Shown here: in pieces, positions 3,758-46,061 of the stretch | Layout: each line of letters begins with the position of its first letter | Position numbering within the stretch: the stretch's first letter is position 1 | IMG/VR virus record: IMGVR_UViG_2851949629_000006 | Coordinates: 1-49,715 of that record | DNA: 49,715 bases | Source of the DNA: a virus | Taxonomy: Duplodnaviria > Heunggongvirae > Uroviricota > Caudoviricetes | Direction: 5' to 3' (one strand) | Notes under the pieces: model-generated | Seen by the model: only the letters and a program-made list of their open reading frames with translations | Told to the model about the DNA's origin: nothing | Databases searched by the model: none | Translations under genes and position numbers: made by a program

Positions 3758-3787
3758 GACCGTTTTTATAATGCGGTCAGGAGTTTT

Positions 3788-4070
3788 TTACAACATTGTC
3801 AGTGAGTTACGGCTGGATGTTTTTGGCTGACGCCAGTCCAGCTTATCGAGGAGCATTGCCAGTTGCGAGCGGGTAATGGATACCTTGCCGTCACGTACCG
3901 CAGGCCAGATAAACTGGCCTTCCTCCAGGCGTTTGGTGAACAGGCACAGACCATCAGCATCAGCCCAAAGAATTTTGACGGTGTCACCCCGTCGGCCACG
4001 GAAGATAAACAGGTGACCGGAGAAGGGATTATCATTCAGCACATGTTGTACCTGTTCTCCCAGTCCGTTG
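3788..4070 (-). pseudogene. tnpB: IS66 TnpB (orfB) of copy 2, C-terminal part, cut by copy 1
   Basis: Translation matches residues ~34-116 of intact TnpB (5745-6095); N-terminal remainder is at 6603-6678. Confidence 0.75.
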
Positions 4071-4100
4071 GTAAGCGTTAACGGAGTGCCGTATTGACGC

Positions 4101-5714
4101 TTATTTATTGGTGAGTACTACGTTCCATGGCAGGAGTTCGTCAACTCGGTTGGAAGGCCATTCCGGCAGTACGCTCAGGATATGGCGCAGATACGCTTCC
4201 GGATCGATACCGTTCAGTCGGCAGGTGCTGATCAGCCCGTACAACAGTGCTCCTCGCTCGCCGCCGTGATCGCTGCCGAAGAACATAAAGTTTTTCTTTC
4301 CGAGACAGACTGCACGAAGCGCTCTTTCCGCAGCATTATTATCCGCCTCCGCCAGACCGTCATCACTGTAATAACAGAGGGCATCCCACTGATTCAGTAC
4401 ATAGCTGAACGCTTCGCCCAGTCTGGATTTTTTCGACAGCGTACCATTCTTCTCCACCATCCATTCATGCAGCGACGTCAGTAACACTTTGCTTCGCTGC
4501 TGCCTGACGGCAAGACGCTCTGACTCCGGTAATCCCCGTATTTCATCCTCGATGGCGTACAGTTCACTGATTCGCTTCAGGGCTTCTTCTGCCGTCGCAC
4601 TTTTGCTGCTGATGTATACATCGTGGATTTTTCGCCGGGCATGGGCCCAGCACGCAACTTCTGTCAGTGCACCACCTTCACGTTCTGCACTGAACAACCT
4701 GTCGTAACCTGTGAACGCATCCGCCTGCAGGATACCCCGGAAGGGGCGGAGGTGTTGCTCCGGGTGTTTCCCCTGCCGGTTCGGCGAGTACGCGAACCAG
4801 ACCGCTGGAGGAGATGACGAACCCACATTGCGATCATCCCGGACATACGTCCAGATACGCCCTGTTTTCGCCTTTTTCTGACCCGGTGCCAGTACCTTTA
4901 CCGGTGTGTCATCAGTGTGAACCTTGCGGGTGTTCATTACATAACGGTACAGGGCATCATTCACCGGTGTCATTAACTGGCAGCACGCGTCAACCCAGTT
5001 GGAGAGTAAGGCCCGGCTCAGTTCGACACCCTGGCGGGCAAAGATTTCACTCTGACGATACAGTGGCAGATGTTCGCAGTATTTTCCCGTTAACACGCGG
5101 GCAAGTAATCCGGGGCCCGCGATACCACGCTCTATCGGGCGGGACGGCGCCGGTGCTTCAACAATACAGTCACATTTTGTACAGGCTTTTTTTACCCGTT
5201 CTGTGCGGATCACTTTCAGGGCACTGCTCACCAGTTCCAGCTGTTCAGCGCTGACTTCCCCCAGATAATCCAGCTCACCGCCACACTCCGGGCAACAGCT
5301 TTCTTCTGGCTCCAGGCGGTGTATTTCACGGGGAAGGTGTGCCGGTAACGGACGACGATGGCGCGACTGTCGCAACTGGCGGGGAACCTGAGGATCGTCT
5401 TCCCGCCCACTGTAACGATCGCTGTCCTGTTCACGTTGTTTCAGCAGAGCCTCAGCCAGTTCAACTTCACGACGCAGTTTTTCAGAACGGGTACCGAACA
5501 GCATCCGGCGCAGTTTTTCTATCTGAGCCCGCAGATGTTCTATTTCCCGTTCATCTTCTTCGATCTTTTCTTCGGCACGTGTCAGTGCAGAGCGCAGGAA
5601 GGCTTCCGTCTCTTCAACCAGACTCAGTTGCTGGTCTTTCTGACGGAGGGCTTCAGCCTGCTCAGAGAGCAACCTTTCCAGCTCTGCGATGCGAATGAGG
5701 TATTTCTGACTCAT
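4101..5714 (-). CDS. tnpC: IS66 transposase TnpC (copy 1), 537 aa
   Basis: Intact ORF, identical to 2144-3757. Confidence 0.85.
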   Translation of the reverse strand: MSQKYLIRIAELERLLSEQAEALRQKDQQLSLVEETEAFLRSALTRAEEKIEEDEREIEHLRAQIEKLRRMLFGTRSEKLRREVELAEALLKQREQDSDRYSGREDDPQVPRQLRQSRHRRPLPAHLPREIHRLEPEESCCPECGGELDYLGEVSAEQLELVSSALKVIRTERVKKACTKCDCIVEAPAPSRPIERGIAGPGLLARVLTGKYCEHLPLYRQSEIFARQGVELSRALLSNWVDACCQLMTPVNDALYRYVMNTRKVHTDDTPVKVLAPGQKKAKTGRIWTYVRDDRNVGSSSPPAVWFAYSPNRQGKHPEQHLRPFRGILQADAFTGYDRLFSAEREGGALTEVACWAHARRKIHDVYISSKSATAEEALKRISELYAIEDEIRGLPESERLAVRQQRSKVLLTSLHEWMVEKNGTLSKKSRLGEAFSYVLNQWDALCYYSDDGLAEADNNAAERALRAVCLGKKNFMFFGSDHGGERGALLYGLISTCRLNGIDPEAYLRHILSVLPEWPSNRVDELLPWNVVLTNK

Positions 5715-5744
5715 GACCGTTTTTATAATGCGGTCAGGAGTTTT

Positions 5745-6095
5745 TTACAACATTGTCAGTGAGTTACGGCGGGATGTTTTTGGCTGACGCCAGTCCAGTT
5801 TATCGAGGAGCATTGCCAGTTGCGAGCGGGTAATGGATACCTTGCCGTCACGTACCGCAGGCCAGATAAACTGGCCTTCCTCCAGGCGTTTGGTGAACAG
5901 GCACAGACCATCAGCATCAGCCCAAAGAATTTTGACGGTGTCACCCCGTCGGCCACGGAAGATAAACAGGTGACCGGAGAAGGGATTATCATTCAGCACA
6001 TGTTGTACCTGTTCTCCCAGTCCGTTGAAGGATTTACGCATATCGGTAACGCCGGCAACGAGCCAGATACGGGTACCTGATGGGAGTGAGATCAT
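5745..6095 (-). CDS. tnpB: IS66 accessory protein TnpB (orfB), copy 1
   Basis: 116-aa ORF between tnpA and tnpC, 4-bp overlap with tnpA; typical IS66 orfB size and position. Confidence 0.8.
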   Translation of the reverse strand: MISLPSGTRIWLVAGVTDMRKSFNGLGEQVQHVLNDNPFSGHLFIFRGRRGDTVKILWADADGLCLFTKRLEEGQFIWPAVRDGKVSITRSQLAMLLDKLDWRQPKTSRRNSLTML

Positions 6096-6517
6096 CTTCC
6101 CCTCCCGGTCAGTTCACGGATCAACACTGTGAGCAGCTCTGGCGATGGATTTTCCAGCGTCATGTTACCGTGACGGAATTCCACCTTGCAGGAACTGGCA
6201 CTGACTCTGGTCTGAGTGGAAGTGGATAAAGACGGCGCAATGGCCGCCACAGGTTCTTTCTGCTCATCCGGCGTTATTTCTACAGGTAATAATTCAACGC
6301 CAGTGTCAGAAGAGGTCGTTACCGGAAGACGCCGCGAAACACGCCCTTCGTTCTGCCAGAGCCTGAGCCATTTGAAAATAACATTATCATTGACGCCATT
6401 TTCACGTGCAATCTGTGCAACACAAGCTCCAGGTTGTGATGCCAGTTCCACCATACGAAGTTTGAATTCATTCGAATAGTTTTTACGAGGTTCTTTTCGC
6501 CAGTCCTGTAATTCCAT
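6092..6517 (-). CDS. tnpA: IS66 accessory protein TnpA (orfA), copy 1
   Basis: 141-aa ORF with a helix-turn-helix region (NEFKLRMVELASQPGACVAQIARENGV); first gene of the IS66 operon. Confidence 0.8.
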   Translation of the reverse strand: MELQDWRKEPRKNYSNEFKLRMVELASQPGACVAQIARENGVNDNVIFKWLRLWQNEGRVSRRLPVTTSSDTGVELLPVEITPDEQKEPVAAIAPSLSTSTQTRVSASSCKVEFRHGNMTLENPSPELLTVLIRELTGRGR

Positions 6518-6602
6518 ACTTAGATGTCCGTCTATATCAGATGGGCGTCTAAGTTACCAATTCTCGTCTGATGGCTACATACGGCGGTCAGTTTACGCTT
6601 AC

Positions 6603-6678
6603 GTCCGTTGAAGGATTTACGCATATCGGTAACGCCGGCAACGAGCCAGATACGGGTACCTGATGGGAGTGAGATCAT
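6603..6678 (-). pseudogene. tnpB: IS66 TnpB (orfB) of copy 2, N-terminal 25 codons, continues at 3788-4070
   Basis: Reverse complement encodes MISLPSGTRIWLVAGVTDMRKSFNG, identical to the TnpB N-terminus; interrupted at the GTCCGTTG duplication. Confidence 0.75.
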
Positions 6679-7100
6679 CTTCCCCTCCCGGTCAGTTCAC
6701 GGATCAACACTGTGAGCAGCTCTGGCGATGGATTTTCCAGCGTCATGTTACCGTGACGGAATTCCACCTTGCAGGAACTGGCACTGACTCTGGTCTGAGT
6801 GGAAGTGGATAAAGACGGCGCAATGGCCGCCACAGGTTCTTTCTGCTCATCCGGCGTTATTTCTACAGGTAATAATTCAACGCCAGTGTCAGAAGAGGTC
6901 GTTACCGGAAGACGCCGCGAAACACGCCCTTCGTTCTGCCAGAGCCTGAGCCATTTGAAAATAACATTATCATTGACGCCATTTTCACGTGCAATCTGTG
7001 CAACACAAGCTCCAGGTTGTGATGCCAGTTCCACCATACGAAGTTTGAATTCATTCGAATAGTTTTTACGAGGTTCTTTTCGCCAGTCCTGTAATTCCAT
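6675..7100 (-). CDS. tnpA: IS66 accessory protein TnpA (orfA), copy 2
   Basis: Identical translation to 6092-6517. Confidence 0.8.
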   Translation of the reverse strand: MELQDWRKEPRKNYSNEFKLRMVELASQPGACVAQIARENGVNDNVIFKWLRLWQNEGRVSRRLPVTTSSDTGVELLPVEITPDEQKEPVAAIAPSLSTSTQTRVSASSCKVEFRHGNMTLENPSPELLTVLIRELTGRGR

Positions 7101-7185
7101 ACTTAGATGTCCGTCTATATCAGATGGGCGTCTAAGTTACCAATTCTCGTCTGATGGCTACATACGGCGGTCAGTTTACGCTTAC

Positions 7186-8273
7186 ATTTTGCGCCGCGCA
7201 TGAGCCCAGCATCCTGCTTCCGTCAACGCGCCGCCTTCACGTTCGGCACTGAACAGCCGATCGTAACCTGCGAACGCATCTGCCTGCAGGATACCCCGGA
7301 AGGGACGAAGGTGTTGCTCCGGATGTTTACCCTGATGGTCCGGTGAGTAGGCGAACCAGACCGCCGGAGGTTCTGGCGAACCGGCATTTCGGTCATCCCG
7401 GACATACGTCCAGATATATCCTGTTTTCGCCTTCTTCCTGCCCGGTGCCAGTACTTTTACTGGTGTGTCATCAGTGTGAACCTTGCGGGTGTTCATCACA
7501 TAACTGTACAGGGCATCATTCAGCGGAGTCATTAACTGGCAGCACGCATCAACCCAGTTGGAGAGTAAGGCACGGCTCAGTTCGACACCCTGGCGGGCAA
7601 AGATTTCACTCTGACGATACAGTGGCAGGTGTTCGCAGTATTTTCCCGTTAACACGCGGGCAAGTAACCCCGGGCCCGCGATACCACGCTCTATCGGACG
7701 GGATGGTGCCGGTGCTTCAACGATGCAGTCACATTTTGTACAGGCTTTTTTTACCCGTTCTGTGCGGATCACTTTCAGGGCGCTGCTCACCAGCTCCAGT
7801 TGTTCTGCGCTGACTTCCCCCAGATAATCCAGCTCACCGCCACACTCCGGGCAACAGCTTTCTTCAGGCTCCAGGCGGTATATTTCACGGGGGAGATGTG
7901 CCGGTAACGGACGACGATGGCGCGACTGTCGCAACTGGCGGGGAACCAGCGGGTCATCCTCACGCCCACTGTAACGATCGCTTTCCTGCTCGCGTTGTTT
8001 CAGCAGGACTTCAGCCTGTTCAACCTCACTACGCAGTTTTTCAGAACGGGTTCCGAACAGCATCCGGCGCAGTTTTTCTATCTGAGCCCGCAGATGCTCT
8101 ATTTCTCGCTCATCTTCTTCGATCTTTTCTTCGGCACGTGCCAGTGCAGAGCGCAGGAAGGCCTCCGTCTCTTCAACCAGACTCAGTTGCTGGTCTTTCT
8201 GACGGAGGGCTTCAGCCTGCTCAGAGAGCAGCCTTTCCAGCTCAGCGATGCGAATGAGGTATTTCTGACCCAT
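7186..8273 (-). pseudogene. tnpC: IS66 transposase TnpC of copy 3, N-terminal ~360 codons (cut by copy 2)
   Basis: Translation MGQKYLIRIAELERLL... is a diverged homolog of copy 1/2 TnpC; ORF runs into the copy-2 terminus and stops 4 nt inside it. Confidence 0.75.
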
Positions 8274-8303
8274 GGCCGTTTTTATAATCCGGCCCGGCGT
8301 TTT

Positions 8304-8654
8304 TTACAACATTGTCAGTGCGTTAAGGCGGGATGTTTTTGGCTGACGCCAGTCCAGCTTATCGAGGAGCATTGCCAGTTGCGAGCGGGTAATGGATATC
8401 TTACCGTCATGCACCGCAGGCCAGATAAACTGACCTTCCTCAAGGCGTTTGGTGAACAGGCACAGACCATCAGCATCAGCCCACAGGATTTTAATCGTGT
8501 CTCCCCGTCGGCCACGGAAGATAAACAGGTGACCGGAGAAGGGGTTATCATCCAGCACATGCTGTATCTGCTCCCCCAGACCGTTGAAGGATTTACGCAT
8601 ATCAGTAACGCCGGCAACGAGCCAGATACGGGTACCTGATGGGAGTGAAATCAT
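8304..8654 (-). CDS. tnpB: IS66 accessory protein TnpB (orfB), copy 3
   Basis: 116-aa ORF, diverged homolog of copy-1 TnpB. Confidence 0.8.
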   Translation of the reverse strand: MISLPSGTRIWLVAGVTDMRKSFNGLGEQIQHVLDDNPFSGHLFIFRGRRGDTIKILWADADGLCLFTKRLEEGQFIWPAVHDGKISITRSQLAMLLDKLDWRQPKTSRLNALTML

Positions 8655-9088
8655 CGTCCCCTCCCGGTCAGCTCACGGATCAACACCGTGAGCAGCTCTG
8701 GTGAAGGATTTTCCAGCATCATTTTACCGTAATGGAATTCCACATGGCAGGAAGCTGCACAAGCAACTGATAATGCCTCCGGAGCAGGAGCATCTGTAGC
8801 ACAGCGCGGGGTGTCGATAAGTTCCACTGGAACCAGAGTCGGAGAGGCCGGAAAAGATTGTGATACTGTAGGGCCTACAATAGTTGGAGGCATTCTACGA
8901 GAAATACGTCCTTCTCTTTGCCAGAGGCGTAGCCATTTAAAAATCAGGTTGTTATCAACGCCATGTTCCCGGGCCAGTTGTGCAACATTGGCATTTGGTT
9001 TCGAAGCCAGTTCAACCATATGAAGTTTAAATTCATTAGAAAATATCCGGCGGGTTCCGGAGCGCCAGTCTGTAGGTTTATCCATCAA
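8651..9088 (-). CDS. tnpA: IS66 accessory protein TnpA (orfA), copy 3
   Basis: 145-aa ORF, diverged homolog of copy-1 TnpA (conserved NEFKL.MVELAS and FKWLRLWQ segments). Confidence 0.8.
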   Translation of the reverse strand: MMDKPTDWRSGTRRIFSNEFKLHMVELASKPNANVAQLAREHGVDNNLIFKWLRLWQREGRISRRMPPTIVGPTVSQSFPASPTLVPVELIDTPRCATDAPAPEALSVACAASCHVEFHYGKMMLENPSPELLTVLIRELTGRGR

Positions 9089-10894: not shown

Positions 10895-11836
10895 TTACAT
10901 AGATGTTTCGTTTAATTCTTCCCGACGAACGCTGTAAACGTCGGTGGCTTTTGCCAGCAGTTCGTCATCATCTGAAAGTTTTTGTGCAATGTATTTGTAA
11001 GCCTTATCCAGTTCGGAGACAGTGCTGTAATTCATCGCTGCGCTGGTAAAGGCCATCAGCATTTCTTCTGGATCACGGCTATCCGCTTTACGCGTTTGCT
11101 CATCAGGCTTTTTCACTGGTTTAGCGTTGATCAGACTGTTCATTCCCGCAGCAGTGGTCGTTTGCGGAGTAATGTCTCGCTCAACGCGCGGTGCCGTTTC
11201 CTGTAATTCGTCTGGTGTGTAGACGCCCATGATTACGTCAGGACAGTGCAAGCGAGACCAGCGTTTTGTCGCAAGGTATGCGAGTTGTTGTTTCGGATCA
11301 CTGGCCCAAAGTGTGGAGTTTCTTACCTGTGCTTGAGACAGCATTAACTCAAGCACTCGAGGTTGATCCTCGCCCTTCATGGTTGCCCATACGCGAACAC
11401 CGCAGCCTTCTTCGTCTTTTAGAGTCCAGCCTGGTGCGATATATGGATTGCCGTTTTTGGATGTTTTCTCAACAAACTTACCGATCACGCGTTCCCACGG
11501 CCCGAACCACTCGTAGTTGATGCGATCTTTTGTTGGCGACATCGTTGAGATAACTGCGTTTACTAATTGGGCTTCATAACCTAGCGTGCCGTTCACAACA
11601 TGGGTTTTCTGAGCCACGGCAAACGGGTTCATTCCCCACTGCGCAGCCTGCATTGCCACGGCCATGCAATCAGCTGGTTTCCCGGCGAGGTGCGCCGGTA
11701 CCGTTACGCGGCTTTGCGCCATTACCTCGGCGAATTTCATCAGTTGGTTCAAGCCGTCTGGGCTGAAAATAGTTGCAGCAGTTCCAGCGATTGCGGTGTC
11801 TACTGGTGCGTTGATGTTTGCGATGTCGTTGCTCAT
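10895..11836 (-). CDS. RecT-like single-strand annealing protein
   Basis: Size, position directly downstream of the exonuclease with an ATGA start/stop overlap, and loose similarity to RecT-family segments. ORF-track N-terminal extension rejected in favour of the ATG at 11836. Confidence 0.5.
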   Translation of the reverse strand: MSNDIANINAPVDTAIAGTAATIFSPDGLNQLMKFAEVMAQSRVTVPAHLAGKPADCMAVAMQAAQWGMNPFAVAQKTHVVNGTLGYEAQLVNAVISTMSPTKDRINYEWFGPWERVIGKFVEKTSKNGNPYIAPGWTLKDEEGCGVRVWATMKGEDQPRVLELMLSQAQVRNSTLWASDPKQQLAYLATKRWSRLHCPDVIMGVYTPDELQETAPRVERDITPQTTTAAGMNSLINAKPVKKPDEQTRKADSRDPEEMLMAFTSAAMNYSTVSELDKAYKYIAQKLSDDDELLAKATDVYSVRREELNETSM

Positions 11837-12654
11837 ATGTACATATCCTGTTTGCGTGCCCACTCAGGGCGTTTAATGATTTCCACACCGCCCCATTCAT
11901 CATTGATGCGGCATTCGTGATAGGTATTCAGATCCCGGCGGAACAGAGCGTGCCCAGCATCGACATCCTGCGCATCCAGCTCGAACACGCGTACCGGATA
12001 CCGACCACAATCAATGCTTTCGCTCACGGCAAGAAAGAAAAAACCATGCGGCTGACCAGTAACCCTCATTGCGCCTTCGCGGTACATTGCGTCCTGCACG
12101 TGGTAGCGGAATTCCTCGATGTGGCGTGCAAAACGGTCCATATCTGCAACCTTTTTCACGTCGACGATCACGTTGTGCTCGTTCAGCCATTTGTCTGGAC
12201 GAATTCGGCACAACTCACCCGTCTCTTCATCGTTCCAGTACATTGATGCTTCGCAGTAACCAGGTGCTTCCAACATCCAGCGTGCCGCCGGATGAGCCAT
12301 TGCGCTATCACGCATCAGCTCCAGTTTCCGCCACTGCTCGGCATCAAGTACCGCAATCCCCATATCCGCTACATCACGAAGAAATGCTTCTGCGTCAGCT
12401 TTACCTTGTTTCGTTCGACGATCGAACTTTGGTGAAACAATGAAGCGTTTGTCGAATTCTCCAGGTTCCAGAAGCAGACAGTGCAATGCAGTTCCCATAT
12501 CTAGTTCAGACTTTTTCTCTTCGTCTTCTGGTGCTGCCTGAACCCATTTAAGAAGCGCCGGATTCTTGGCAACCATGTCCAGTTGCGACTTACTCACGCC
12601 GTCACCGGCGTGGTAGTCTTCGTTGCTGATGTCGAAATAGATGCCAGTATTCAT
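11833..12654 (-). CDS. PD-(D/E)XK-family exonuclease (RecE/YqaJ-like recombination exonuclease)
   Basis: 273-aa ORF immediately upstream of the annealase gene; classic two-gene phage recombination module; family assignment by context and residue pattern, not a search. Confidence 0.5.
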   Translation of the reverse strand: MNTGIYFDISNEDYHAGDGVSKSQLDMVAKNPALLKWVQAAPEDEEKKSELDMGTALHCLLLEPGEFDKRFIVSPKFDRRTKQGKADAEAFLRDVADMGIAVLDAEQWRKLELMRDSAMAHPAARWMLEAPGYCEASMYWNDEETGELCRIRPDKWLNEHNVIVDVKKVADMDRFARHIEEFRYHVQDAMYREGAMRVTGQPHGFFFLAVSESIDCGRYPVRVFELDAQDVDAGHALFRRDLNTYHECRINDEWGGVEIIKRPEWARKQDMYI

Positions 12655-13314: not shown

Positions 13315-13404
13315 TTACCTCGGTCTGTTACCGTTGAGGTAATGATTATGCGTATCTGGTTTGATGTCAATAGATATGAGTTAAAAAAATTACCCGACAG
13401 GTAA
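13315..13404. promoter_or_regulatory. O_L-like operator cluster: palindromes TTACCGTTGAGGTAA (13328-13342) and TTACCCGACAGGTAA (13390-13404), plus half-site at 13315
   Basis: 15-bp TTACC-N5-GGTAA inverted repeats between the repressor gene 3' end and the leftward early operon. Confidence 0.6.
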
Positions 13405-37667: not shown

Positions 37668-40142
37668 ATGAGACAGGAATGTATACAAGCGGTCCAGCAG
37701 GCGGCGCAGCGCACGTTAACGGCGCGAGAAATACAGAACATTGAAGACCGCGTTTATCGAAATATGCGCTCCATTGCTCGTGATGACCCGATGTCGTGGA
37801 GACAACTTTCCGAATCAGAGCGGCTATATCGAGCAGCACAATTGGCATCTGAAGAATTACAGCGAGAAGCGGCATTAAAGAAACGTCGTGTGGCTCTCAC
37901 TATAGCCGCGCGTCAGAGATTGGATAAATTTATCAATAGCTATCAAGGGGCTGATGGGAAACTTGGAGCTCTTAACCGTACTATAGCTTTTAATGCAGAC
38001 GGTAAATCTAATTTCCTCTCTGTTGAATCCAGAACAAAAGCCACCCGTGATTATGCATTGAGTCAATTGCAGGAGGCATTCGAAGCAGTTGATCCTCGCT
38101 TTTTTGGTCTGTTTGAAGATGAAGCGGGCGTACGTGACCTGGTATATGAAATGCGGGGGCAAAATACTGGCAATGCTAAAGCAAGAAAAGGTGCTAAGGC
38201 GTGGAGAGAAGTTACAGAGCTGCTGCGCCGCCGGTTTAATGATGCTGGTGGGGACATTGGCTATCTCGAAAACTGGGGGATCCCTCAACATCATTCTATG
38301 GAAAAGGTTGGGGCAGTATCAAAGGATAAGTGGGTTAGCGATGTTATAGGTAAGCTGGATCGCAAATATTATATCCGAGCTGATGGACAACTGATGAACG
38401 ATGCCGAGTTGTCTTCATTTCTTGGAGAGGCTTATAACACGATCGCTACTGGTGGGCTGAATAAGCTTACTGATACCGGAATGCGAATTTCCGGCGCACG
38501 TGCTAACCGTGGTAATGCATCACGACAGATACATTTCAAAGATGCAGATTCCTATCTGCAATATCAGCAACTTTATGGCGATCGCTCTCTATGGGAAATC
38601 ATGGTCGGTCACCTGGAAGGTATCAGTAAAGATATTGCACTGGTGGAAACATATGGCCCAAACCCCGATCATGTTTTCCGCTCTCTTCTTGATCAGGTGA
38701 AGGCAGAAACGGCAACAGCTAACCCGAGTAAAACCGGTAAAGTCGAGCGGCTGGCGAACAACACAGAGAATCTGTACAACTTTATTTCCGGAAAGACACA
38801 GCCTGTAGCGAATCCGCACATCGCGCGATGGTCTGACAATATCCGCAACTGGCTGGTTGCCAGCAGACTCGGATCCGCGTTGCTGTCATCGTTCTCTGAT
38901 CTTGGAACCATGTATCTGTCTGCGAAGGTTACCAACCTTCCAATGAGCCAGTTATTCCGTAACCAGCTTGAAGCTATGGACCCAACGAACCGCACTGAGC
39001 TTGCGCGGGCACGCCGCGCTGGTCTGGCGATGGAATCTCTACTTGGCAGCGTTAACCGCTGGGCGATGGATAATATGGGGCCGTCTGTGTCTCGTTGGGC
39101 GGCAACGGCGGTAATGCGTGCCAGTGGGCTTACAGCATGGTCAGATGCGCACAAGCGCGCCTATGGCGTAACCATGATGGGAAGCCTGGGAGAAGTAGTG
39201 TCACGGACACCAGACCTTCGTAGCCTTGATGACTCTGATTTTCGTATCCTGAAAAGCAAAGGGATTACTGACACAGACTGGAGCGTATGGAAGTTGGCGC
39301 AACAGGAGGACTGGGGGAACGGTAATAATACGATGCTGACGCCGGAAAGCATTATGCGTATCCCTGATTCAGCAGTTAAACATCTTGGTGAGCCTGAACG
39401 CGTGAAATTTGAGGCAATGCGTAAACTGCTCGGTGCCGTAACTGAAGAAGTTGATATGGCTGTTATTACACCGGGAGCACGTGAGCAACTGATAACCGGT
39501 TCTGGTATTCAGCGTGGAACATGGAAAGGTGAATTAACGAGAAGTGTTTTCCTGTTTAAATCGTTCCCTATCTCGGTTGTTATGCGTCACTGGTCACGCG
39601 CTATGGGTATGCCGTCTGCTGGTGGGCGTGCGGCATATATTGCGACGTTTATTGCCAGTACGACCATTCTTGGCGCTTTGTCGCAGCAACTTAACGACCT
39701 TGCGTCTGGTCGTAATCCTCGAGAGATGACAGGAGAAGATGCCGCAAAATTCTGGCTTGGTGCTCTACTGAAAGGTGGTGGTCTTGGCCTGTACGGTGAC
39801 TTTTTATTGTCAGATCACACTAGGTACGGAAGCGGCACGCTGGCGTCGATGCTTGGCCCGGTAGCTGGTCTGGTTGATGACGTAGTGAAGATTGCTCAGG
39901 GCATACCGTTAAATGCTGTGGAAGGGAAGAGTGAGCAGACTGGTGGTGATCTGGTGAAGCTGGGGAAAGGTTTGATGCCTGGTGCGAATCTCTGGTACTT
40001 GAAGGCGGCTCTCGATCACATGATCTTTAACCAAATGCAGGAGTATTTTTCACCAGGCTATTTGCGTAAAATGGAGCAACGTTCGAAGAAAGAGTTTAAC
40101 CAGACATACTGGTGGCGACCTCAGGATGTCACTCCGCAATAA
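37668..40142 (+). CDS. internal virion/ejection protein (large)
   Basis: 824-aa ORF, last gene of the structural block before the accessory island. Confidence 0.45.
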   Translation: MRQECIQAVQQAAQRTLTAREIQNIEDRVYRNMRSIARDDPMSWRQLSESERLYRAAQLASEELQREAALKKRRVALTIAARQRLDKFINSYQGADGKLGALNRTIAFNADGKSNFLSVESRTKATRDYALSQLQEAFEAVDPRFFGLFEDEAGVRDLVYEMRGQNTGNAKARKGAKAWREVTELLRRRFNDAGGDIGYLENWGIPQHHSMEKVGAVSKDKWVSDVIGKLDRKYYIRADGQLMNDAELSSFLGEAYNTIATGGLNKLTDTGMRISGARANRGNASRQIHFKDADSYLQYQQLYGDRSLWEIMVGHLEGISKDIALVETYGPNPDHVFRSLLDQVKAETATANPSKTGKVERLANNTENLYNFISGKTQPVANPHIARWSDNIRNWLVASRLGSALLSSFSDLGTMYLSAKVTNLPMSQLFRNQLEAMDPTNRTELARARRAGLAMESLLGSVNRWAMDNMGPSVSRWAATAVMRASGLTAWSDAHKRAYGVTMMGSLGEVVSRTPDLRSLDDSDFRILKSKGITDTDWSVWKLAQQEDWGNGNNTMLTPESIMRIPDSAVKHLGEPERVKFEAMRKLLGAVTEEVDMAVITPGAREQLITGSGIQRGTWKGELTRSVFLFKSFPISVVMRHWSRAMGMPSAGGRAAYIATFIASTTILGALSQQLNDLASGRNPREMTGEDAAKFWLGALLKGGGLGLYGDFLLSDHTRYGSGTLASMLGPVAGLVDDVVKIAQGIPLNAVEGKSEQTGGDLVKLGKGLMPGANLWYLKAALDHMIFNQMQEYFSPGYLRKMEQRSKKEFNQTYWWRPQDVTPQ

Positions 40143-40151
40143 GGAAGTGTT

Positions 40152-40325
40152 GTGTTTTTAATTATTTTGAGTGTGATAATTTCTGGTGGATTGTTATTTA
40201 TTGACCGCTACAAATATTTTCTTAACCCTCAGACTCAAGCTATTTGCTGGTTCATCTTTGTTGTGCAGGGAGTAGTTCTTGTTGCAAGCCTTATTGAGGG
40301 GAGGCCTCTTATTTTTACTGGGTAA
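40152..40325 (+). CDS. small membrane protein (57 aa)
   Basis: GTG start with AAGGAAG RBS 4 nt upstream; two hydrophobic segments; not in the ORF track (below its length cutoff); AT-rich. Confidence 0.4.
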   Translation: MFLIILSVIISGGLLFIDRYKYFLNPQTQAICWFIFVVQGVVLVASLIEGRPLIFTG

Positions 40326-40337
40326 ATAGGTGACTAC

Positions 40338-40634
40338 ATGCAAGCTATAGGATTCATTGTTTATATCGTCGTTGGTCTTTTTCAGTTGGCAGCAATTATG
40401 GCTGGGCTTGAATCATGGTGGGGATTGCACTGGATAATTGCAGCCCCCATTGCTTTCATCGTGAGCTATATTCCATTTGTTGGAGCGATTGTTGGTATGG
40501 TTGGCGCTGTGGATGTATGGCGGTGGGAGTGGTGGCAGGCTGGCCTTCTCTTCTTTGGTGGGATCATCTTTGCTATTGTCTGCGGTGGAATGTCATCATT
40601 TTTCGAACGGCTATCATTCAGAAAAGGAACGTGA
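40338..40634 (+). CDS. integral membrane protein (98 aa, about 3 TM segments)
   Basis: ATG with AGGTGA RBS; hydrophobic throughout; followed by an intrinsic terminator. Confidence 0.5.
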   Translation: MQAIGFIVYIVVGLFQLAAIMAGLESWWGLHWIIAAPIAFIVSYIPFVGAIVGMVGAVDVWRWEWWQAGLLFFGGIIFAIVCGGMSSFFERLSFRKGT

Positions 40635-40642
40635 CATGTCAC

Positions 40643-40667
40643 AGGCCGCTTTCGCGGCCTTGTTTTT
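40643..40667 (+). terminator. rho-independent terminator (AGGCCGCTTTCGCGGCCT + TGTTTTT)
   Basis: 7-bp GC stem, 4-nt loop and T-run; the 18-bp core GGCCGCTTTCGCGGCCTT recurs at 43564-43581. Confidence 0.65.
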
Positions 40668-40728
40668 AACGAATGCCACCGCCACCCGGGCGGGAATCCG
40701 CAGACACAAAAAAGCCCGCGTCGCGGGC

Positions 40729-41268
40729 TTACCAAAACTTGTACCACGGGGATTTATCCTTCAATGGACAATCCTTCCATCGTGTGGCCAACCATTCATA
40801 TTCTTTAAAATATGTGTTTATGTTTTCTTTTTCTCTAATAGCTTGTATAAGAGGTAGCGCAATCTGATAGTTATTTACAACGGAGCTGTAAAATACTTCC
40901 TTAATCATGGTCTCATCATAAGTTTTCCGCTTCACGCTCACAGCCATGCGTTCGTAGAAACCTAGACAGTAAATTATTTCTCTCTTCTCTATCTTTTCTT
41001 CATCCGTAAGATCAGCCTGCCCATTGCTTGGATACATATAAGAGCGGAATGATTTGTTCGATTCGTGAATGCGGCGCATAGTAGATAGGCCTTTCTTATA
41101 ATCTACATCAAACCTGCTTTCACCAAGGAATACTGAAGTGTGTACTTTTCTCGCTGTATTTACATTATAAATAATAGTAGCGATAGCTATGAACAAGCCA
41201 AGCGAAACCGCGACTGCACTTACGATTTGAGCCACAGCCATGGCAAATTGCATTTCTTCACTTAACAC
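40729..41268 (-). CDS. N-terminally membrane-anchored protein (179 aa), accessory gene
   Basis: GTG start with GGAGA RBS; one N-terminal TM helix (FAMAVAQIVSAVAVSLGLFIAIATIIY) then a soluble domain; AT-rich codon usage. Confidence 0.5.
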   Translation of the reverse strand: MLSEEMQFAMAVAQIVSAVAVSLGLFIAIATIIYNVNTARKVHTSVFLGESRFDVDYKKGLSTMRRIHESNKSFRSYMYPSNGQADLTDEEKIEKREIIYCLGFYERMAVSVKRKTYDETMIKEVFYSSVVNNYQIALPLIQAIREKENINTYFKEYEWLATRWKDCPLKDKSPWYKFW

Positions 41269-41289
41269 AAACTGTCTCCAGACATGAAA

Positions 41290-41309
41290 ACGGGGCCTAA
41301 TGGCCCCGT
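41290..41309 (-). terminator. intrinsic terminator downstream of the antirepressor gene
   Basis: Hairpin ACGGGGCC-TAAT-GGCCCCGT; on the minus strand it is followed by TTTTCAT. Confidence 0.5.
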
Positions 41310-41485
41310 CATAAAACTATCCGAATGTTAAACGCCTTCGTACTCGTCAAATTTTCTCATGTGGGCTCCTCCTGTATCGGTGCCTAATCGCTATGGATCA
41401 CCCGTAAGGTAATAGTACTCTATTCACCCCCGGTCTGCAATCTGTACAGAATTATTTAAAGGCACATCCCTGTGCCGCCGTTCTG

Positions 41486-42142
41486 TCAGAAGAACCCTGC
41501 CTTGTCGTTGATGTACTCCGCGTGAGTCTGGATATCACGCAGGCATTTGCTCACACCGACGATGTAGCAGAACATGGTGGTCAGCTCCGCCGCCGCGCCC
41601 GATACGTCGTGCCCGTCGTCCTGTAACTGGTTCAGCAGATTCATCAGCAGTGAGTTCTCCGTCAGGCCGAGAACACCAGACGGAGAATGAATCAGACTGC
41701 GGTAGCCAGGCTTCAGTGGGGCGCTGTATTCTTTTTTGTCTTCCAGCTTGATCGCCTCCATAATGGCGGGCATGAAGCCTGACAAGACCTTCTCCACTTT
41801 TGTTTCTTGTTGTCTTAAACGTTTCTCGCATTCAATGAAGTAGCGTCGCACCTGGCGACCTTTTTCGTTACGCTCGACCATTGCCAGCTCTTTGGCTGTA
41901 TCGAGGGTGAGGTGGTACTCTTTGCGGTTGTGGCCGCCTCTACCAGATGTTTGCTTTCCCAAATTGGAAAGCAAAATATAGTCTTGATTTTCAATGAATT
42001 CGTATTCTGAAATTCGATTTGTAATCCATGCTGCAAACACCTTTTTAACACCTAAAAAAGCGTGCAGATCGCGGGCATTACAAAGTAGGGCTGTTTCGTT
42101 AGATATAGTGCCGTTGAATACGGGGATGAGTTGAGCGTTCAT
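41486..42142 (-). CDS. antirepressor (AntA/Ant-like)
   Basis: 218 aa; N-terminal ...[22 protein letters not shown]... and ...[35 protein letters not shown]... resemble the AntA/AntB N-terminal domain. GGAG RBS. Confidence 0.6.
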
Positions 42143-42296
42143 GATGGTGTCTCCACTTAGCGAATTACATCACCACCGCAACGCCAATTACTGGTGGTGA
42201 ACTGAACAAGGTTGGCGTACCGGCCTAAGTGGTACCGGCGTCCTTTCGGACCCCTGCCCAGCCCACCATAATTCGGATATAGCTGTGCTTAACGCA

Positions 42297-42320
42297 TAAA
42301 AAAACCACGTCTGGCGTGGT
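42297..42320 (-). terminator. intrinsic terminator/attenuator within the ant leader (or 3' end of a small RNA)
   Basis: Minus strand reads ACCACG-CCAGA-CGTGGT followed by seven T (plus strand A-run 42298-42304); located about 110 nt downstream of the predicted ant promoter and about 150 nt upstream of the ant start codon. Confidence 0.5.
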
Positions 42321-42410
42321 ATGCGCCACTTAGTAACTCGGGACGCCAATCCCGGCACTGGATTTTGCCAGTGCCCGATTACTATGGCACAAGAGGAGTG
42401 CGATGTAAAT

Positions 42411-42533
42411 TTACCGTAAAGGTAATAATAAATGCATAACTCACGTTATTTCAACCCTATGTGGTTTGATTGATCCCATTTCAGAAAATACCTGCCTATT
42501 TTTTTGCCAGTATGCGTATACTTTCGATAGAAT
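42411..42533. promoter_or_regulatory. divergent promoter region: operator TTACCGTAAAGGTAA (42411-42425), motif TATGTGGTT (42458-42466), and a plus-strand sigma70-like promoter TTGCCA-17bp-TAGAAT (42505-42533)
   Basis: Operator identical in form to O_L/O_R; on the minus strand a TTGAAA -35 with the -10 overlapping the operator is positioned to drive the ant leader. Confidence 0.5.
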
Positions 42534-42562
42534 GTTAACCCTAGAGGTAGTTGGGGGTGCCC

Positions 42563-43066
42563 ATGAACACGAAGAGAGTTGCAGCGATGAGGCATAGACG
42601 CTTGACCTTGAAAAAGTCTGAAAAAGAAAAAGAGAAAAAGATGGTGATTGAAGCAGCCGCCATAGCAACTGCCAATGCCATCAGGATTCATGATGAAGAA
42701 GTTGAGCAAAAATACCCGGTTATGTTCATCACTGAATACGACCAGCATGAGGCATTGTTAAAAATCCGGGGCACATCTTTTGAAGGAATCTTGGCAGATA
42801 AGCTTCATCGTGCCTCATGTCAAACGAATATAATGCGACCTTACGAGTCAAGGCTAATCGAAACTGGACGCTCCAAGGATAAGCAGCAATTAGTTGAGAT
42901 GATAAAGCGGTATTATAAGTCATCTTTTAAGCCTACAGCGTCACATGAGGTTGTAATGCGAGAAGTACCAAAGATGTCTGTTGAAAAATCGCATGCAATC
43001 TCGCGCAGGATGTTTGCACGCACTGCTGAAGATATGGCTCAGGAGCTCTACGACGATGCCGAATAA
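42563..43066 (+). CDS. hypothetical protein, upstream partner of the YafO-like gene (candidate antitoxin/immunity)
   Basis: 167 aa from the ATG at 42563 (ORF track starts at TTG 42551); basic N-terminus; stop overlaps the downstream start (ATGCCGAATAA). Confidence 0.45.
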   Translation: MNTKRVAAMRHRRLTLKKSEKEKEKKMVIEAAAIATANAIRIHDEEVEQKYPVMFITEYDQHEALLKIRGTSFEGILADKLHRASCQTNIMRPYESRLIETGRSKDKQQLVEMIKRYYKSSFKPTASHEVVMREVPKMSVEKSHAISRRMFARTAEDMAQELYDDAE

Positions 43067-43562
43067 ATTCCAGGGGTTGGTTCACCCTGGAATTTTTGGG
43101 AAGGACCCTGAGCTAATACCTATCAAAAACGCGTTCATAGATCACTGGCGCTACGGTCATCATAAGGATTTCGGAAAGGACACTCTGTTTCGGGATCCAC
43201 CGAAAGAGATGCTGGAATATCACATACGCCACGTTCACGTAAACATCGGAAACTATACTGACAAGTTTGGTGAGAGCGGTACGGAACAATGCTGGAAAAA
43301 CTGGGCATCCGGGAAGAAAGACAAGACCACCAACAAGCATAAAAAAATACCAACCAGTGATGTATATGTGATTTATCTTGTAACGTCTGAGCGACATGCG
43401 TTTCTTCTGGATTACTGGGATGAGCCAGCACACAAAAAAGTAGAAATTGACGAACAGAAACAAAAACTTCTTGTCGAGTGTGACAGAATTTTGCGGCGGA
43501 AAAATTTAGAATCCATGCCGCGCGATGCAAGTTTGTGGGACCCGGAATTTTACGACTGTTAA
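43056..43562 (+). CDS. YafO-family toxin-like protein (candidate type II toxin)
   Basis: 168 aa; segments HHKDFGKDTLFRDP and YHIRHVHVNIGN resemble the YafO segments DTFGRDALYDD and ERVAHIHLANE as I recall them. Confidence 0.45.
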   Translation: MPNKFQGLVHPGIFGKDPELIPIKNAFIDHWRYGHHKDFGKDTLFRDPPKEMLEYHIRHVHVNIGNYTDKFGESGTEQCWKNWASGKKDKTTNKHKKIPTSDVYVIYLVTSERHAFLLDYWDEPAHKKVEIDEQKQKLLVECDRILRRKNLESMPRDASLWDPEFYDC

Positions 43563-43563
43563 T

Positions 43564-43581
43564 GGCCGCTTTCGCGGCCTT
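43564..43581. terminator. hairpin GGCCGCTTTCGCGGCCTT between convergent genes (second copy of the 40644 hairpin)
   Basis: Exact 18-bp repeat of 40644-40661; 6-bp GC stem with TTTC loop; T-rich flank. Confidence 0.5.
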
Positions 43582-43586
43582 TAAAT

Positions 43587-43862
43587 TTACCGGGTTTGTT
43601 TTCGTAATTGTTCGGCACAATAGTCGAGATGTGTTTGCAGATCCTGCATAGACATCTGTGAGCTGGTGACGTAGTTAATCAGTGCAGTCAGTTCGGCAAG
43701 TGGGCCATCGACATTAAATCCATCCTTATCGAGATCCCGGAGTAATTTCATCAAGTGCGATCCCTCCACCAGTGACCTGACGCCTCCCGGCGTGTGAATC
43801 CTTTCGGTAAATCCGTCTTCCAGTGGATAGTGATACCGCTGCATCTTATCTTCTCCATGCAA
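43587..43862 (-). CDS. small protein paralogous to the antirepressor C-terminal domain
   Basis: 91 aa; ...TPGGVRSLVEGSHLMKLLRDLDKDGFNVDGPLAELTALINYV...MQDLQTHLDY... parallels ...[42 protein letters not shown]...[10 protein letters not shown]... of the 41486-42142 product. Confidence 0.5.
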   Translation of the reverse strand: MHGEDKMQRYHYPLEDGFTERIHTPGGVRSLVEGSHLMKLLRDLDKDGFNVDGPLAELTALINYVTSSQMSMQDLQTHLDYCAEQLRKQTR

Positions 43863-43920
43863 TAACTGTATAAATATACAGTACCAAATAATTTATTGTC
43901 TATCCAGCACGTTTTGCAAA

Positions 43921-43975
43921 TCACCTGAAAGGTAATATCTGTTCGTATTCACAGTCTGTCTATCCATATGTGGTT
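43921..43975. promoter_or_regulatory. divergent promoter region with operator TCACCTGAAAGGTAA (43921-43935) and motif CCATATGTGGTT (43964-43975)
   Basis: Between the Ant-C-like gene (minus) and the tail fibre gene (plus). Confidence 0.5.
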
Positions 43976-44039
43976 TTTCAGGTAATAAAATAACCCAGCA
44001 TGCGGCGCAACGGGTGCTGCGACTATCTGGAGATTTAAA

Positions 44040-46061
44040 ATGACGGTCTCAACCGAAGTTGGCCACAACGAATACACTGGTAACGGCGTTACGACTACAT
44101 TCCCTTATACATTCAGGGTTTTCGATAAATCTGATCTGGTAGTGCAGATAGTTGACCTTGAAGAGAATATCACTGTCCTGGTTCTTGATACCGATTACTC
44201 AGTAACCGGGGTGGGGGGATACAATGGTGGCAATGTAATGCTGAGGACAGCGTTAACTTCTGGTTATCGTATTTTTGTATCGCGTGAGCTGCCTGTTACG
44301 CAGGAAACAGATCTGCGCAATCAGGGAAAGTTTCTGGCAGAGGTGCATGAGGATGCATTTGATAAGCTGACGATGCTTATTCAGCAAGTATTTTATAACC
44401 TGAGCAAGGTAATAAAAGTTCCTGAATCAGGGAACTGGTTGGTTCCAACAATTAGGTTAAGAAAGAATAAAATCTTTGCATGGGACGAAGAGGGAAATCC
44501 AATTGCTGTATCACCTGAATCAGGTAGTGCCTCTGATGTAATGATTGAGCTGGCAAAATCATCCGGGGCTGGGTTGATTGGCACAACGTCGGGGGGGACC
44601 GTTCAATCAGTACTGGATGAGTGTCATGCAAGGCTCATCACATGTGAGCGCAACAGCCGGGTGGAAAATTTTTACACGCTGGCGGAAACCTGCACAGCGG
44701 AGCTTTTATCGCTGAATGCCCCGGAGGCATATGACAAATCCATTACGCTGACGGTCAATGAGGAACTGACCACGGACTATACCGGTCCGGTCACAGGTCA
44801 TTGCAGCATCGGTAATCCGCATAACTACACCATTGCGATGTGTACGAGCACAACTCTGGAATATCAGGTTTCCTCGGTGGTACTGGAGAGTGACGGCACG
44901 TTCAGTTTCGCCAGAAGCTGGACTGGGGCTAAGTCTTTTAAACTGTATCGTACATCAAATAACGGTCTGGCAACCGTCTGGGAAGATCCGCTGTGTATCC
45001 GCTCTTACCGGATGCCATCGGATGCCGGGGATGAAACGGTAAGGGTGATGAAAGACCGTACATACACTTATGATCAGGCGGTGTCAGCTATTGCACTGAT
45101 GGCGCAGGGGAATAGTCAGGTGGAACAGTTTGTCCGTGGTTTGTGCGCGATTGTGGGTAGTGGTGGTAGCGAGGGGAGTGTGCCTTTTTTCGTGAACCGC
45201 ATGTCAGCGCAGACATCGTCACAGTATTACCGGACGGGAAACGCAGCGTGGGTGGCGTATGCGCTGGCGTATTATCTGCAGAAATATCCGGATGGTGAAA
45301 TGGCCGTTGTTGCCCGGGATAAACTAACGCAGTGCGCAGAGTGGATTGAAACGTTCAGAGTAGCAGACAGTGGTGATATTCGTTATGGGTTGTATACATC
45401 CGGTAGCGGACGGTATCTGGATGGCGTCTTTTACCCTGATTTTAAAGCAGACTGGTGCACATCGGAGCACCAGTTTGATTTGTGGTTTCTGTTTGACCTG
45501 ATGGGGCGGGTAGGCTTCACCGGCTACGCTGAAAAGGCGAAAGCCCTGGCGGATGCCATTATGGAAAAGCTGTGGGTGGAGGATGAAGGGCGATTTTATG
45601 CCGGGATGCGAACCACCGGGCCTGACAAGGCCTCACCACTGGACTGTGCAAGCTGGGGCGGGCTGTTTGTGTACAATATCGATATGGAAAAAGCCCGGCG
45701 GTGTTTTACTTACCTGGACAGATTCTGGTACGCCACGCACGATGCGACAGGGTACATGCCTTATCATCCGGAATATGGCTACCCGAATAAACAGCGGGGA
45801 GTCTGGGTGGAGGGCAGTGCAGGCGTGGCATTGCTGGCCCGTAGACTGGGAGATGATGCCACCGCGATGGATATTCTGGCGAGGCTGGCACCACTGCGCA
45901 CACGTTATGGTTACATTGATTCAAGCGATTATCCAGATAATGATGACATGCCGCCGTGGCCTTCTTCCTGCAACACGGCCTGGATGATACTGGCATGCGA
46001 TCCGCAGGGGTTCTGGAACGTTGGGGTAAGTAGTCTGTCTGGACGTTATTATAGGTATTGA
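44040..46061 (+). CDS. tail fibre/tailspike with T7 gp17-like N-terminal adaptor domain and a predicted enzymatic C-terminal domain
   Basis: N-terminal ...VTTTFPYTFRVFDKSDLVVQIVD...ITVLVLDTDYSVTG parallels the T7 gp17 N-terminus (...DFNIPFEYLARKFVVVTLIG...KVLTINTDYRF). C-terminal ~400 aa is helix-rich with Trp/Tyr/Asp/Glu-rich segments, suggesting an alpha/alpha-barrel glycosidase rather than a beta-helix. Confidence 0.55.
   Translation: MTVSTEVGHNEYTGNGVTTTFPYTFRVFDKSDLVVQIVDLEENITVLVLDTDYSVTGVGGYNGGNVMLRTALTSGYRIFVSRELPVTQETDLRNQGKFLAEVHEDAFDKLTMLIQQVFYNLSKVIKVPESGNWLVPTIRLRKNKIFAWDEEGNPIAVSPESGSASDVMIELAKSSGAGLIGTTSGGTVQSVLDECHARLITCERNSRVENFYTLAETCTAELLSLNAPEAYDKSITLTVNEELTTDYTGPVTGHCSIGNPHNYTIAMCTSTTLEYQVSSVVLESDGTFSFARSWTGAKSFKLYRTSNNGLATVWEDPLCIRSYRMPSDAGDETVRVMKDRTYTYDQAVSAIALMAQGNSQVEQFVRGLCAIVGSGGSEGSVPFFVNRMSAQTSSQYYRTGNAAWVAYALAYYLQKYPDGEMAVVARDKLTQCAEWIETFRVADSGDIRYGLYTSGSGRYLDGVFYPDFKADWCTSEHQFDLWFLFDLMGRVGFTGYAEKAKALADAIMEKLWVEDEGRFYAGMRTTGPDKASPLDCASWGGLFVYNIDMEKARRCFTYLDRFWYATHDATGYMPYHPEYGYPNKQRGVWVEGSAGVALLARRLGDDATAMDILARLAPLRTRYGYIDSSDYPDNDDMPPWPSSCNTAWMILACDPQGFWNVGVSSLSGRYYRY

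Follow-up and report, generated by a model that had tools for sequence, protein, structure and literature searches.

Promoter-early stem-loop (PeSL) cassettes are among the closest described counterparts of the arrangement analysed here. In T4-type phages, terminator-active intergenic stem-loops flank optional genes (Arbiol et al. 2010, PMC2839356); relatives lacking these genes carry one chimeric copy, and recombination between copies has been proposed to delete cargo, to insert it via a circle or to swap it, in each case at intergenic positions where no harm is done (PMC2839356). We examined a repeated hairpin in the IMG/VR virus record IMGVR_UViG_2851949629_000006, positions 1 to 49,715 of which are referred to below as the window. 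The 18-mer GGCCGCTTTCGCGGCCTT occurs exactly twice in the window, on the plus strand at 40644-40661 (hairpin 1) and 43564-43581 (hairpin 2), each time shortly 3' of a stop codon, as a sequence-only reading of this DNA had noted. We consider it probable, at roughly two chances in three, that both are copies of a lineage-conserved rho-independent terminator hairpin which acts as a short-homology linker for cargo exchange.

The locus resembles the PeSL system in that a repeated regulatory stem-loop surrounds variable genes and is found as a single copy in relatives lacking them. PeSLs are about 100 bp long, contain a strong sigma-70 promoter and number about 50 per genome in virulent myophages, whereas the unit shared here is 18 nt (32 nt with an adjacent palindrome), has no promoter in it and is found once or twice, at a single locus, in a temperate podophage. 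In addition, PeSL mini-circles have been demonstrated physically, whereas exchange in Uetakeviruses is deduced from sequences.

Morons and the conserved boundary ("linker") sequences of lambdoid and P22-like phages are textbook knowledge (modular theory, the Juhala/Hendrix moron concept; cited in bioRxiv 10.1101/2024.10.15.618418 and PMC10408124). The locus is similar to lambdoid morons in that a DUF4760 gene and a two-gene cassette, each with a promoter-like site and a terminator, lie between genes that are adjacent in relatives, and to lambdoid linkers in that a short conserved intergenic sequence coincides with mosaic joints. It differs from the latter because the linker is a defined terminator hairpin, not a loosely conserved sequence. 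The terminators at the epsilon15 gp18/gp19 junction and in phiV10 share both position and stem with it, although those records annotate a single copy. A conserved terminator motif near the tailspike genes of lytic phages was proposed as a recombination hotspot and was not found in Uetakevirus prophages (PMC10408124). In the literature searched, we found no description of a duplicated cargo-boundary role in Uetakeviruses.

Two copies of a predicted terminator hairpin

The window is an epsilon15/phiV10-like podophage of the genus Uetakevirus, integrated as a prophage in E. coli. Its genes are ordered as integrase (1-1257), an IS66 array, RecE/RecT, repressor and replication genes, terminase and virion genes, the cargo region, tailspike and lysis genes. 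The virion gene run is closed by an 824-aa structural protein (37668-40142), after which come the cargo region and then the tailspike (44040-46061). The last gene of the late operon is a 98-aa membrane open reading frame (ORF) on the plus strand (40338-40634), ending in TGA.

The hairpin proper is 16 nt long and consists of the 6-bp stem GGCCGC/GCGGCC with the 4-nt loop TTTC; it is followed by TT. Even with up to 3 mismatches allowed, a third copy was absent from the 49.7 kb; 0.05 matches are expected by chance, and none of 100 shuffles reached two. Site 1 starts 9 nt past the TGA of the 98-aa ORF and has an additional A-T pair that extends its stem to 7 bp, and site 2 starts 1 nt past the TAA of a 168-aa ORF (43056-43562). 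The identity between the two sites has a weak 5' extension (22/25 nt) and ends directly after the TT. Both copies end the last plus-strand ORFs and face convergent minus-strand genes, and 5 nt separate hairpin 2 from the stop of the gp24-like gene that converges on it.

The stems are all-GC, 6-7 bp in length, and the local folding energies of the two hairpins are -14 to -16.5 kcal/mol. Each is followed by a U-tract on the plus strand (TTGTTTTT at site 1 and TTTAAATTT at site 2, where the 18-mer continues into GTTTTT and TAAATTT, respectively), and both pass the terminator scan. Scan, folding and position together predict that the two copies terminate plus-strand transcription units, in agreement with the terminator-like character that the sequence-only reading had assigned to them. 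Hairpin 1 would be the intrinsic terminator of the late (virion) operon and hairpin 2 that of the plus-strand cassette. The records of two relatives contain corresponding annotations: 19505-19522 of phiV10 (NC_007804) is identical to hairpin 1 and annotated as a terminator, and the same-stem hairpin at the gp18/gp19 junction of epsilon15 (NC_004775) is annotated as a rho-independent terminator.

In epsilon15, SPN1S and many E. coli prophages, a single hairpin with this stem separates the final gene of the late operon from the gp19/gp24-like gene, which is read leftward and lies upstream of the tailspike. In epsilon15, the order is gp18 as the last late gene, the palindrome GTGACATGTCAC, GGCCGC-AATA-GCGGCC and the stop of leftward gp19. 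The loop at the conserved stem is AATA in epsilon15 and 65FD and AGAA in SPN1S. The backbones of the genus are merely 75-80% identical, and the retention of the stem while the loop drifts is as expected for a structural element.

Junctions with and without cargo

Two sets of relatives were compared. One was obtained by scanning viral contigs for the exact 18-mer and gave about 100 related loci; the other, unbiased set took the C-terminus of the 824-aa virion protein as its selection criterion and comprised 80 loci, 71 of them complete. Among these 71, one hairpin without cargo was found in 31, cargo with hairpin 1 only in 23 and cargo between two hairpins in 17. Structural gene and tailspike are 646 to 4530 bp apart in this set. 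The loops of the 31 cargo-free loci were TTTC (23), TCTT (5), TCTA (1) and ATTA (1), with the remaining one carrying a stem mismatch.

Many relatives, including PAS61, YDC107_2 and PEC399, have no island and join the left flank of site 1 to the right flank of site 2 at a single hairpin. The 98-aa and gp24-like genes are adjacent in PEC399, YDC107_2 and 2017.15.01CC, and most relatives lack the DUF4760 gene and the two-gene cassette. When 40662-43581 was removed in silico, the product aligned gap-free over the joint to the related locus L273 (2466 bp, 95.5%), and the virtual joint was found in E. coli PEC399 at 143/143 nt. The PEC399 prophage is 99-100% identical to the window over 2.2 kb of left and 200 bp of right flank. 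DNA matching the region is present in 874 of 5426 complete E. coli genomes (~16%), and 47 of the 5426 span the empty joint. None of them reaches 80% coverage of 40100-44100, the best value being 72%, and none has the arrangement of the window.

The sequence-only reading had proposed a comparison of related prophages for other cargo between the same hairpins, and such a case exists. E. coli E275 has both hairpins with TTTC loops and the same two-gene cassette, while three other genes replace DUF4760 and the spacing is 3961 bp. DUF2335, a TacA-like antitoxin and an unrelated plus-strand gene of 242 aa are among the further cargo found at this locus in relatives. We also observed that in the IMG/VR contigs L036 and L085 and in TL-2011b (L003), the DNA to the left of the hairpin carries either a second ant/gp24-like/tail-fibre-N module in inverted orientation or an arc-ant pair like that of P22, and in loci of this type the hairpin separates two convergent antirepressor modules.

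Among distinct E. coli-lineage intervals from the ant leader to the gp24-like gene, hairpin 2 was present in 35 of 35 that contain a rightward cassette and in 0 of 24 that contain none, where the spacing is 26-32 nt and transcription is co-directional. Its occurrence thus coincides exactly with convergence of two transcription units, at which it is either required or carried along.

Across about 200 related loci, many left and right flank types meet at the hairpin. A right flank with a small transmembrane gene has 9 or more unrelated left flanks as partners and its Salmonella-type counterpart about 12, and two common left flanks each occur with 3 different right flanks. The joints are base-precise, lying at the 5' edge of the hairpin (or of palindrome plus hairpin) and directly after the TT, and neither partial nor tandem hairpins were seen among the related loci compared. 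The 12 nt between the hairpin and the gp24-like stop exist in two variants, both of which are found with the two-gene cassette and also with a second cassette, and all four combinations of loop (TTTC or TCTT) and right-flank variant are found. In four loci the flanks are identical to those of the window and E275 and the loop alone differs (TCTT instead of TTTC), which suggests conversion between the two copies. Inversion of the loop was considered as a source of these two alleles and rejected since the reverse complement would be GAAA.

We propose the following course of events. The ancestral-looking state is a single hairpin where the rightward late operon converges on the leftward gp19/gp24-like gene, before the tailspike. 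This junction would have been opened in the present prophage, with hairpin 1 staying with the late operon and hairpin 2 with the gp24-like gene, where it would end the rightward cassette. The DUF4760 gene, a P1-type immunity module and a YafO-like pair, each apparently with a promoter-like or operator site and a terminator, would thereby have come to lie between the copies. Since the hairpin is the sole sequence common to otherwise unrelated neighbours and a crossover inside it breaks no gene, it may serve as a short-homology linker. Recombination between two copies would delete the intervening DNA and leave one hairpin, and the reverse event, or exchange with another phage, would load or swap cargo. 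The two-hairpin states and the empty state have the hairpin and the gp24-side flank in common; in the simplest scheme, these states would interconvert by hairpin-by-hairpin exchange, and the two-hairpin and hairpin-1-only states by other crossovers.

The agent may be annealing by the RecET system of the phage or RecA-independent slippage. RecET-like annealing systems and RecA-independent slippage can use homologies of such size, albeit inefficiently. The window encodes a RecE-like exonuclease (11833-12654) and RecT (10895-11863), both on the minus strand, in separate overlapping ORFs. In phiV10, gp37 is annotated as a RecE-RecT fusion; the two ORFs of the window could reflect a frameshift or a genuine split.

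Several observations weigh against the linker reading. The crossovers are placed within the hairpin by inference rather than by direct observation, and 18 bp is shorter than the length usually needed for efficient RecA recombination. Termination is likewise a probable property of the hairpins that rests on prediction and record annotation, and with no T-run on the minus strand at either copy, the description "bidirectional terminator" is unsupported in the window. The loop of hairpin 2 is TCTT, not TTTC, in most relatives. The first set of loci was ascertained on the hairpin itself, and the IMG/VR sets are redundant, so that locus counts are not counts of independent events. Finally, homology-block (high-scoring segment pair) ends from 178 related loci cluster at both hairpins (70+18 and 75+62 ends) and also at 40125-40149, 40700-40724, 41400-41474, 41750-41774, 42125-42174, 42425-42449 (an operator) and 44375-44399 (the end of the tailspike anchor domain). 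With six or more hairpin-free clusters in the region, the hairpin is one junction among several.

These clusters, at operators, gene ends or domain borders, also lend weight to the main live rival, in which selection rather than homology places the joints. Illegitimate recombination would occur anywhere, only joints between transcription units would survive, and the hairpin would mark the junction but not guide it; as every convergent gene pair needs a terminator, the hairpin would merely be retained or carried along. The position of hairpin 2, exactly where a rightward cassette needs a terminator, is in keeping with this account, as is the shortness of 18 bp for homologous exchange. Survival of random joints is, however, difficult to reconcile with the precision and recurrence of those observed, the same 18 or 32 nt being bordered directly by 9 or more unrelated left flanks and 5 or more right flanks and the hairpin never being partial or duplicated, with an empty allele of exactly one repeat unit, or with loop alleles that are reshuffled relative to flanks 6-8 bp away. 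We regard selection acting without guidance as a possible but rather unlikely explanation.

A second rival, that unrelated terminators are identical merely because GGCCGC-UUUC-GCGGCC is a generically good hairpin, draws on the distribution of the 18-mer outside these phages. The viral and the bacterial collection each contain more than 120 stretches with an exact match. In over 100 genomes of unrelated bacteria the 18-mer recurs as an ordinary terminator, and it occurs as well in about 20 unrelated phage contigs and in high-GC coding regions. It arises independently as a terminator in many unrelated bacteria, and its identity alone is weak evidence of common descent, a further point against the linker reading. 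Regardless, convergence is already disfavoured, and we judge it improbable: a chance expectation of 0.05 matches in the window does not fit two copies, the same stem occupies both positions throughout the lineage whereas the other terminators of the region differ, and the single-hairpin relatives join precisely the site-1 left flank to the site-2 right flank.

Among its bacterial occurrences, the 18-mer is the terminator hairpin downstream of ppiD and before ybaV in many Enterobacterales other than E. coli (locus L187, 6881-6898, and about 25 others, including L132, L147, L156, L160, L164 and L170). The ppiD-ybaV region of a genome labelled E. coli ECDA1023 had no megablast match in the 5426 E. 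coli genomes, which renders its species label doubtful and the locus uninformative on true E. coli hosts.

It was also considered that the hairpin might form part of a dedicated exchange site recognised by a protein. The 12-bp perfect palindrome GTGACATGTCAC (PAL, 40631-40642) lies 1 nt 5' of hairpin 1 and contains the TGA stop of the 98-aa ORF. It is kept before the hairpin in epsilon15, SPN1S, 65FD and Tyrion, and 160 of its 171 exact copies in related loci are within 40 nt of a hairpin. It overlaps stop codons at operon ends at 20519-20530 as well as 40631-40642 in the window, and at 2262-2273 and 19493-19504 in phiV10 (L339). A ~200-bp insertion relative to phiV10 (20533-20731) begins directly after the copy at 20519-20530, and the phiV10 copy at 2262-2273, which follows the terL terminator, is likewise at an indel boundary. 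Because the palindrome equals the stem in its conservation between epsilon15 and the E. coli phages and recurs at these two further operon ends, one may imagine a phage nuclease or DNA-binding protein acting at it to trigger breaks or annealing at the hairpin. If so, Uetakeviruses would possess a quasi-programmed loading dock for accessory genes, a temperate analogue of the PeSL mini-circles or of integron attI. We consider this a highly speculative proposal with little chance of being correct.

The least tenable alternative, a discrete 2.9-kb mobile element inserted by a site-specific recombinase or transposase with the 18-bp repeats as att sites or a target-site duplication, would account for direct repeats at the block ends and for a precise empty site, but it is effectively excluded by the lack of an integrase or transposase domain in any ORF of 40644-43581 and by an interior that varies piecewise (breakpoints at 40704, 41400-41474, 41761 and 42431), with many relatives having hairpin 1 and cargo without hairpin 2, and the two-gene cassette found nowhere beyond this locus. 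Hairpin targeting of the IS200/IS605 or REP/RAYT type and integron attC were rejected as well, there being no matching enzyme and a mosaic interior.

The reading of the terminator hairpin as a linker accordingly remains the preferred one. The sequence-only reading had viewed the shared terminator as a module boundary and recombination target, and this portion of it is largely supported by the empty allele, the alternative cargo and the reticulate flanks; it needs amending in that the block is composite, other joints are hairpin-free and the 18-mer is generic. As for moron junctions elsewhere, which it had proposed to check, the hairpin does not mark them: the DUF4760 cassette and the terL end use other terminators, and the window has two copies only.

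The cassettes between the copies

The block contains a 179-aa membrane protein (DUF4760), an AntA-type antirepressor and a two-gene cassette, as had been described from the sequence. It is not the one accessory island that it had been taken for, consisting instead of at least three independently varying cassettes with hairpin-free breakpoint clusters inside. These are (a) 40705-41404, the minus-strand DUF4760 gene with its own terminator; (b) 41405-42431, the antirepressor module; and (c) 42432-43586, a promoter-like site, two overlapping plus-strand ORFs and hairpin 2.

Unit (a) displaces most of a gene for a 53-aa "transmembrane anchored protein", the 3' remnant of which is recognised by homology at 40662-40704 (~43 nt, minus strand). 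The 53-aa gene is intact in most relatives (TUM10828 and others), and E275 has a similar remnant that is annotated as a pseudogene. The same truncation fused to the DUF4760 cassette was observed at locus L109, while other relatives with DUF4760 retain the intact gene. The DUF4760 gene (40729-41268, minus strand, 179 aa; Pfam PF15956, E = 1.6e-30) is an optional cassette found in about 10 of the ~100 loci of the 18-mer set and in 6 of the 71 in the unbiased sample. Consensus matches supply it with candidate signals of its own: an operator/-10-like site at about 41398-41414 and a terminator-like hairpin on the minus strand at 40712-40730 (AAGCCCGCGACGCGGGCTT followed by TTTTGTG, read from 40730 to 40712). 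The operator-like site TCACCCGTAAGGTAA (41398-41412), upstream of the gene and at the cassette junction, equals a repressor site annotated in epsilon15.

Unit (b) encodes the 218-aa antirepressor Ant (41486-42142, minus strand; phrog_377) with an AntA N-domain (Pfam PF08346, E = 4e-26). Its C-terminal domain is common to the gp24-like ORF, both matching phrog_450 and phrog_15539. At 41750-41774, 93 homology blocks end inside ant at the border between the AntA N-domain and the C-domain, with a mosaic breakpoint at about 41761, indicating domain-level shuffling within the antirepressor. Directly upstream of ant on the same strand, its leader contains a C4 antisense RNA (42190-42273; Rfam RF01695, 64.7 bits, gathering 45), preceded by an isrK-like RNA with a candidate a1/b1 C4-target region (42298-42387; RF01394, 67.2 bits, gathering 50). 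The a1/b1 model RF03163, whose match overlaps that of isrK, scored 44.3 bits, slightly under its gathering threshold of 46.7, and a terminator-like hairpin (42320-42304, minus strand) lies in the isrK-like region. A minus-strand promoter-like site, TTGAAA-18-TATTAT, with the operator TTACCGTAAAGGTAA (42411-42454) stands before the leader.

These features predict that ant is under RNA control of the P1/P7 immI type, in which a C4 antisense RNA controls icd/ant. Like immI, the block centre combines a C4 RNA with a downstream antirepressor gene, possibly together with a1/b1 targets (RF03163 scoring under gathering); unlike it, Ant is a mosaic of AntA and Ant-C domains, the operator is of the epsilon15 type, and the module is sited between virion and tailspike genes as is the immI of P22. 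The antirepressor part, which had been counted as moron cargo, is better described as a regulatory, immI-like module with a C4 antisense RNA.

Unit (c) starts with a promoter-like site found by scanning (TTGCCA-18-TAGAAT, 42504-42533, plus strand), followed by a first gene of 167 aa from its ATG (42563-43066, plus strand; phrog_9503), a putative antitoxin gene, and by the 168-aa gene at 43056-43562 (plus strand; phrog_1651). With hairpin 2 at its end, this cassette has its own promoter and terminator in the manner of a moron, as judged from consensus matches only. The label "YafO-like" given to the second gene stands by annotation: RefSeq names the positionally equivalent 168-aa ORF of E275 a YafO family toxin, and the protein is 31% identical to TL-2011b gp44. 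Hidden Markov models lend the label no support, the 168-aa protein having no Pfam match at E <= 10 and no NCBIfam match at E <= 0.01. For the cargo proteins, PADLOC, NCBIfam and permissive Pfam searches returned nothing except DUF4760 and AntA. Searches aimed at copies of the two-gene cassette outside this locus gave, for DNA, only phage EC.W1-9 and no plasmid, and for protein, as the sole further match, the distant TL-2011b gp44.

The right border of the block is the conserved gp19/gp24-like ORF (43587-43862, minus strand), which is 91 aa long (85 aa in RefSeq homologues), homologous across all relatives compared, and a free-standing homologue of the Ant C-domain (compare 41486-41761).

The motif TTACC-N5-GGTAA, annotated as the repressor operator in epsilon15, occurs 13 times in the window, where 0.75 occurrences are expected, at 13328, 13390, 14102, 14150, 16402, 16464, 20795, 20813, 24023, 41398, 42411, 43921 and 45227. 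The DUF4760, ant and gp24-like genes have copies at their promoters, and copies coincide with the breakpoints at 41400-41474 and 42425-42449. The presence of operator-like sites at cassette promoters suggests that the cassettes may be repressor-controlled; as regards expression from the repressed prophage, these sites, if anything, argue for repression. In this respect the cassettes differ from classical morons, in that their promoter sites resemble repressor operators and they may not be expressed in the prophage.

Outside the cargo region, an IS66-family array (2144-9088) lies within the prophage next to the integrase gene. It comprises full-length 537-aa transposase ORFs at 2144-3757 and 4101-5714, a truncated 363-aa copy at 7182-8273, and TnpA/TnpB-like ORFs.

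What the junction means for temperate phages

The general view of phage mosaicism is unchanged by these results; the hairpin-linked shuffling is clear but not new in kind. At base resolution, the locus offers a clean example from nature of accessory genes being loaded, swapped and lost by temperate phages with their essential operons unharmed. Toxin-like pairs, membrane proteins and variants of the antirepressor are among the cargo exchanged, and in the unbiased sample cargo ranges from none to about 4 kb at the locus. The hairpin together with its conserved neighbours could anchor catalogues of cargo over thousands of prophages, and the hairpin site could guide the engineering of tolerated insertions.

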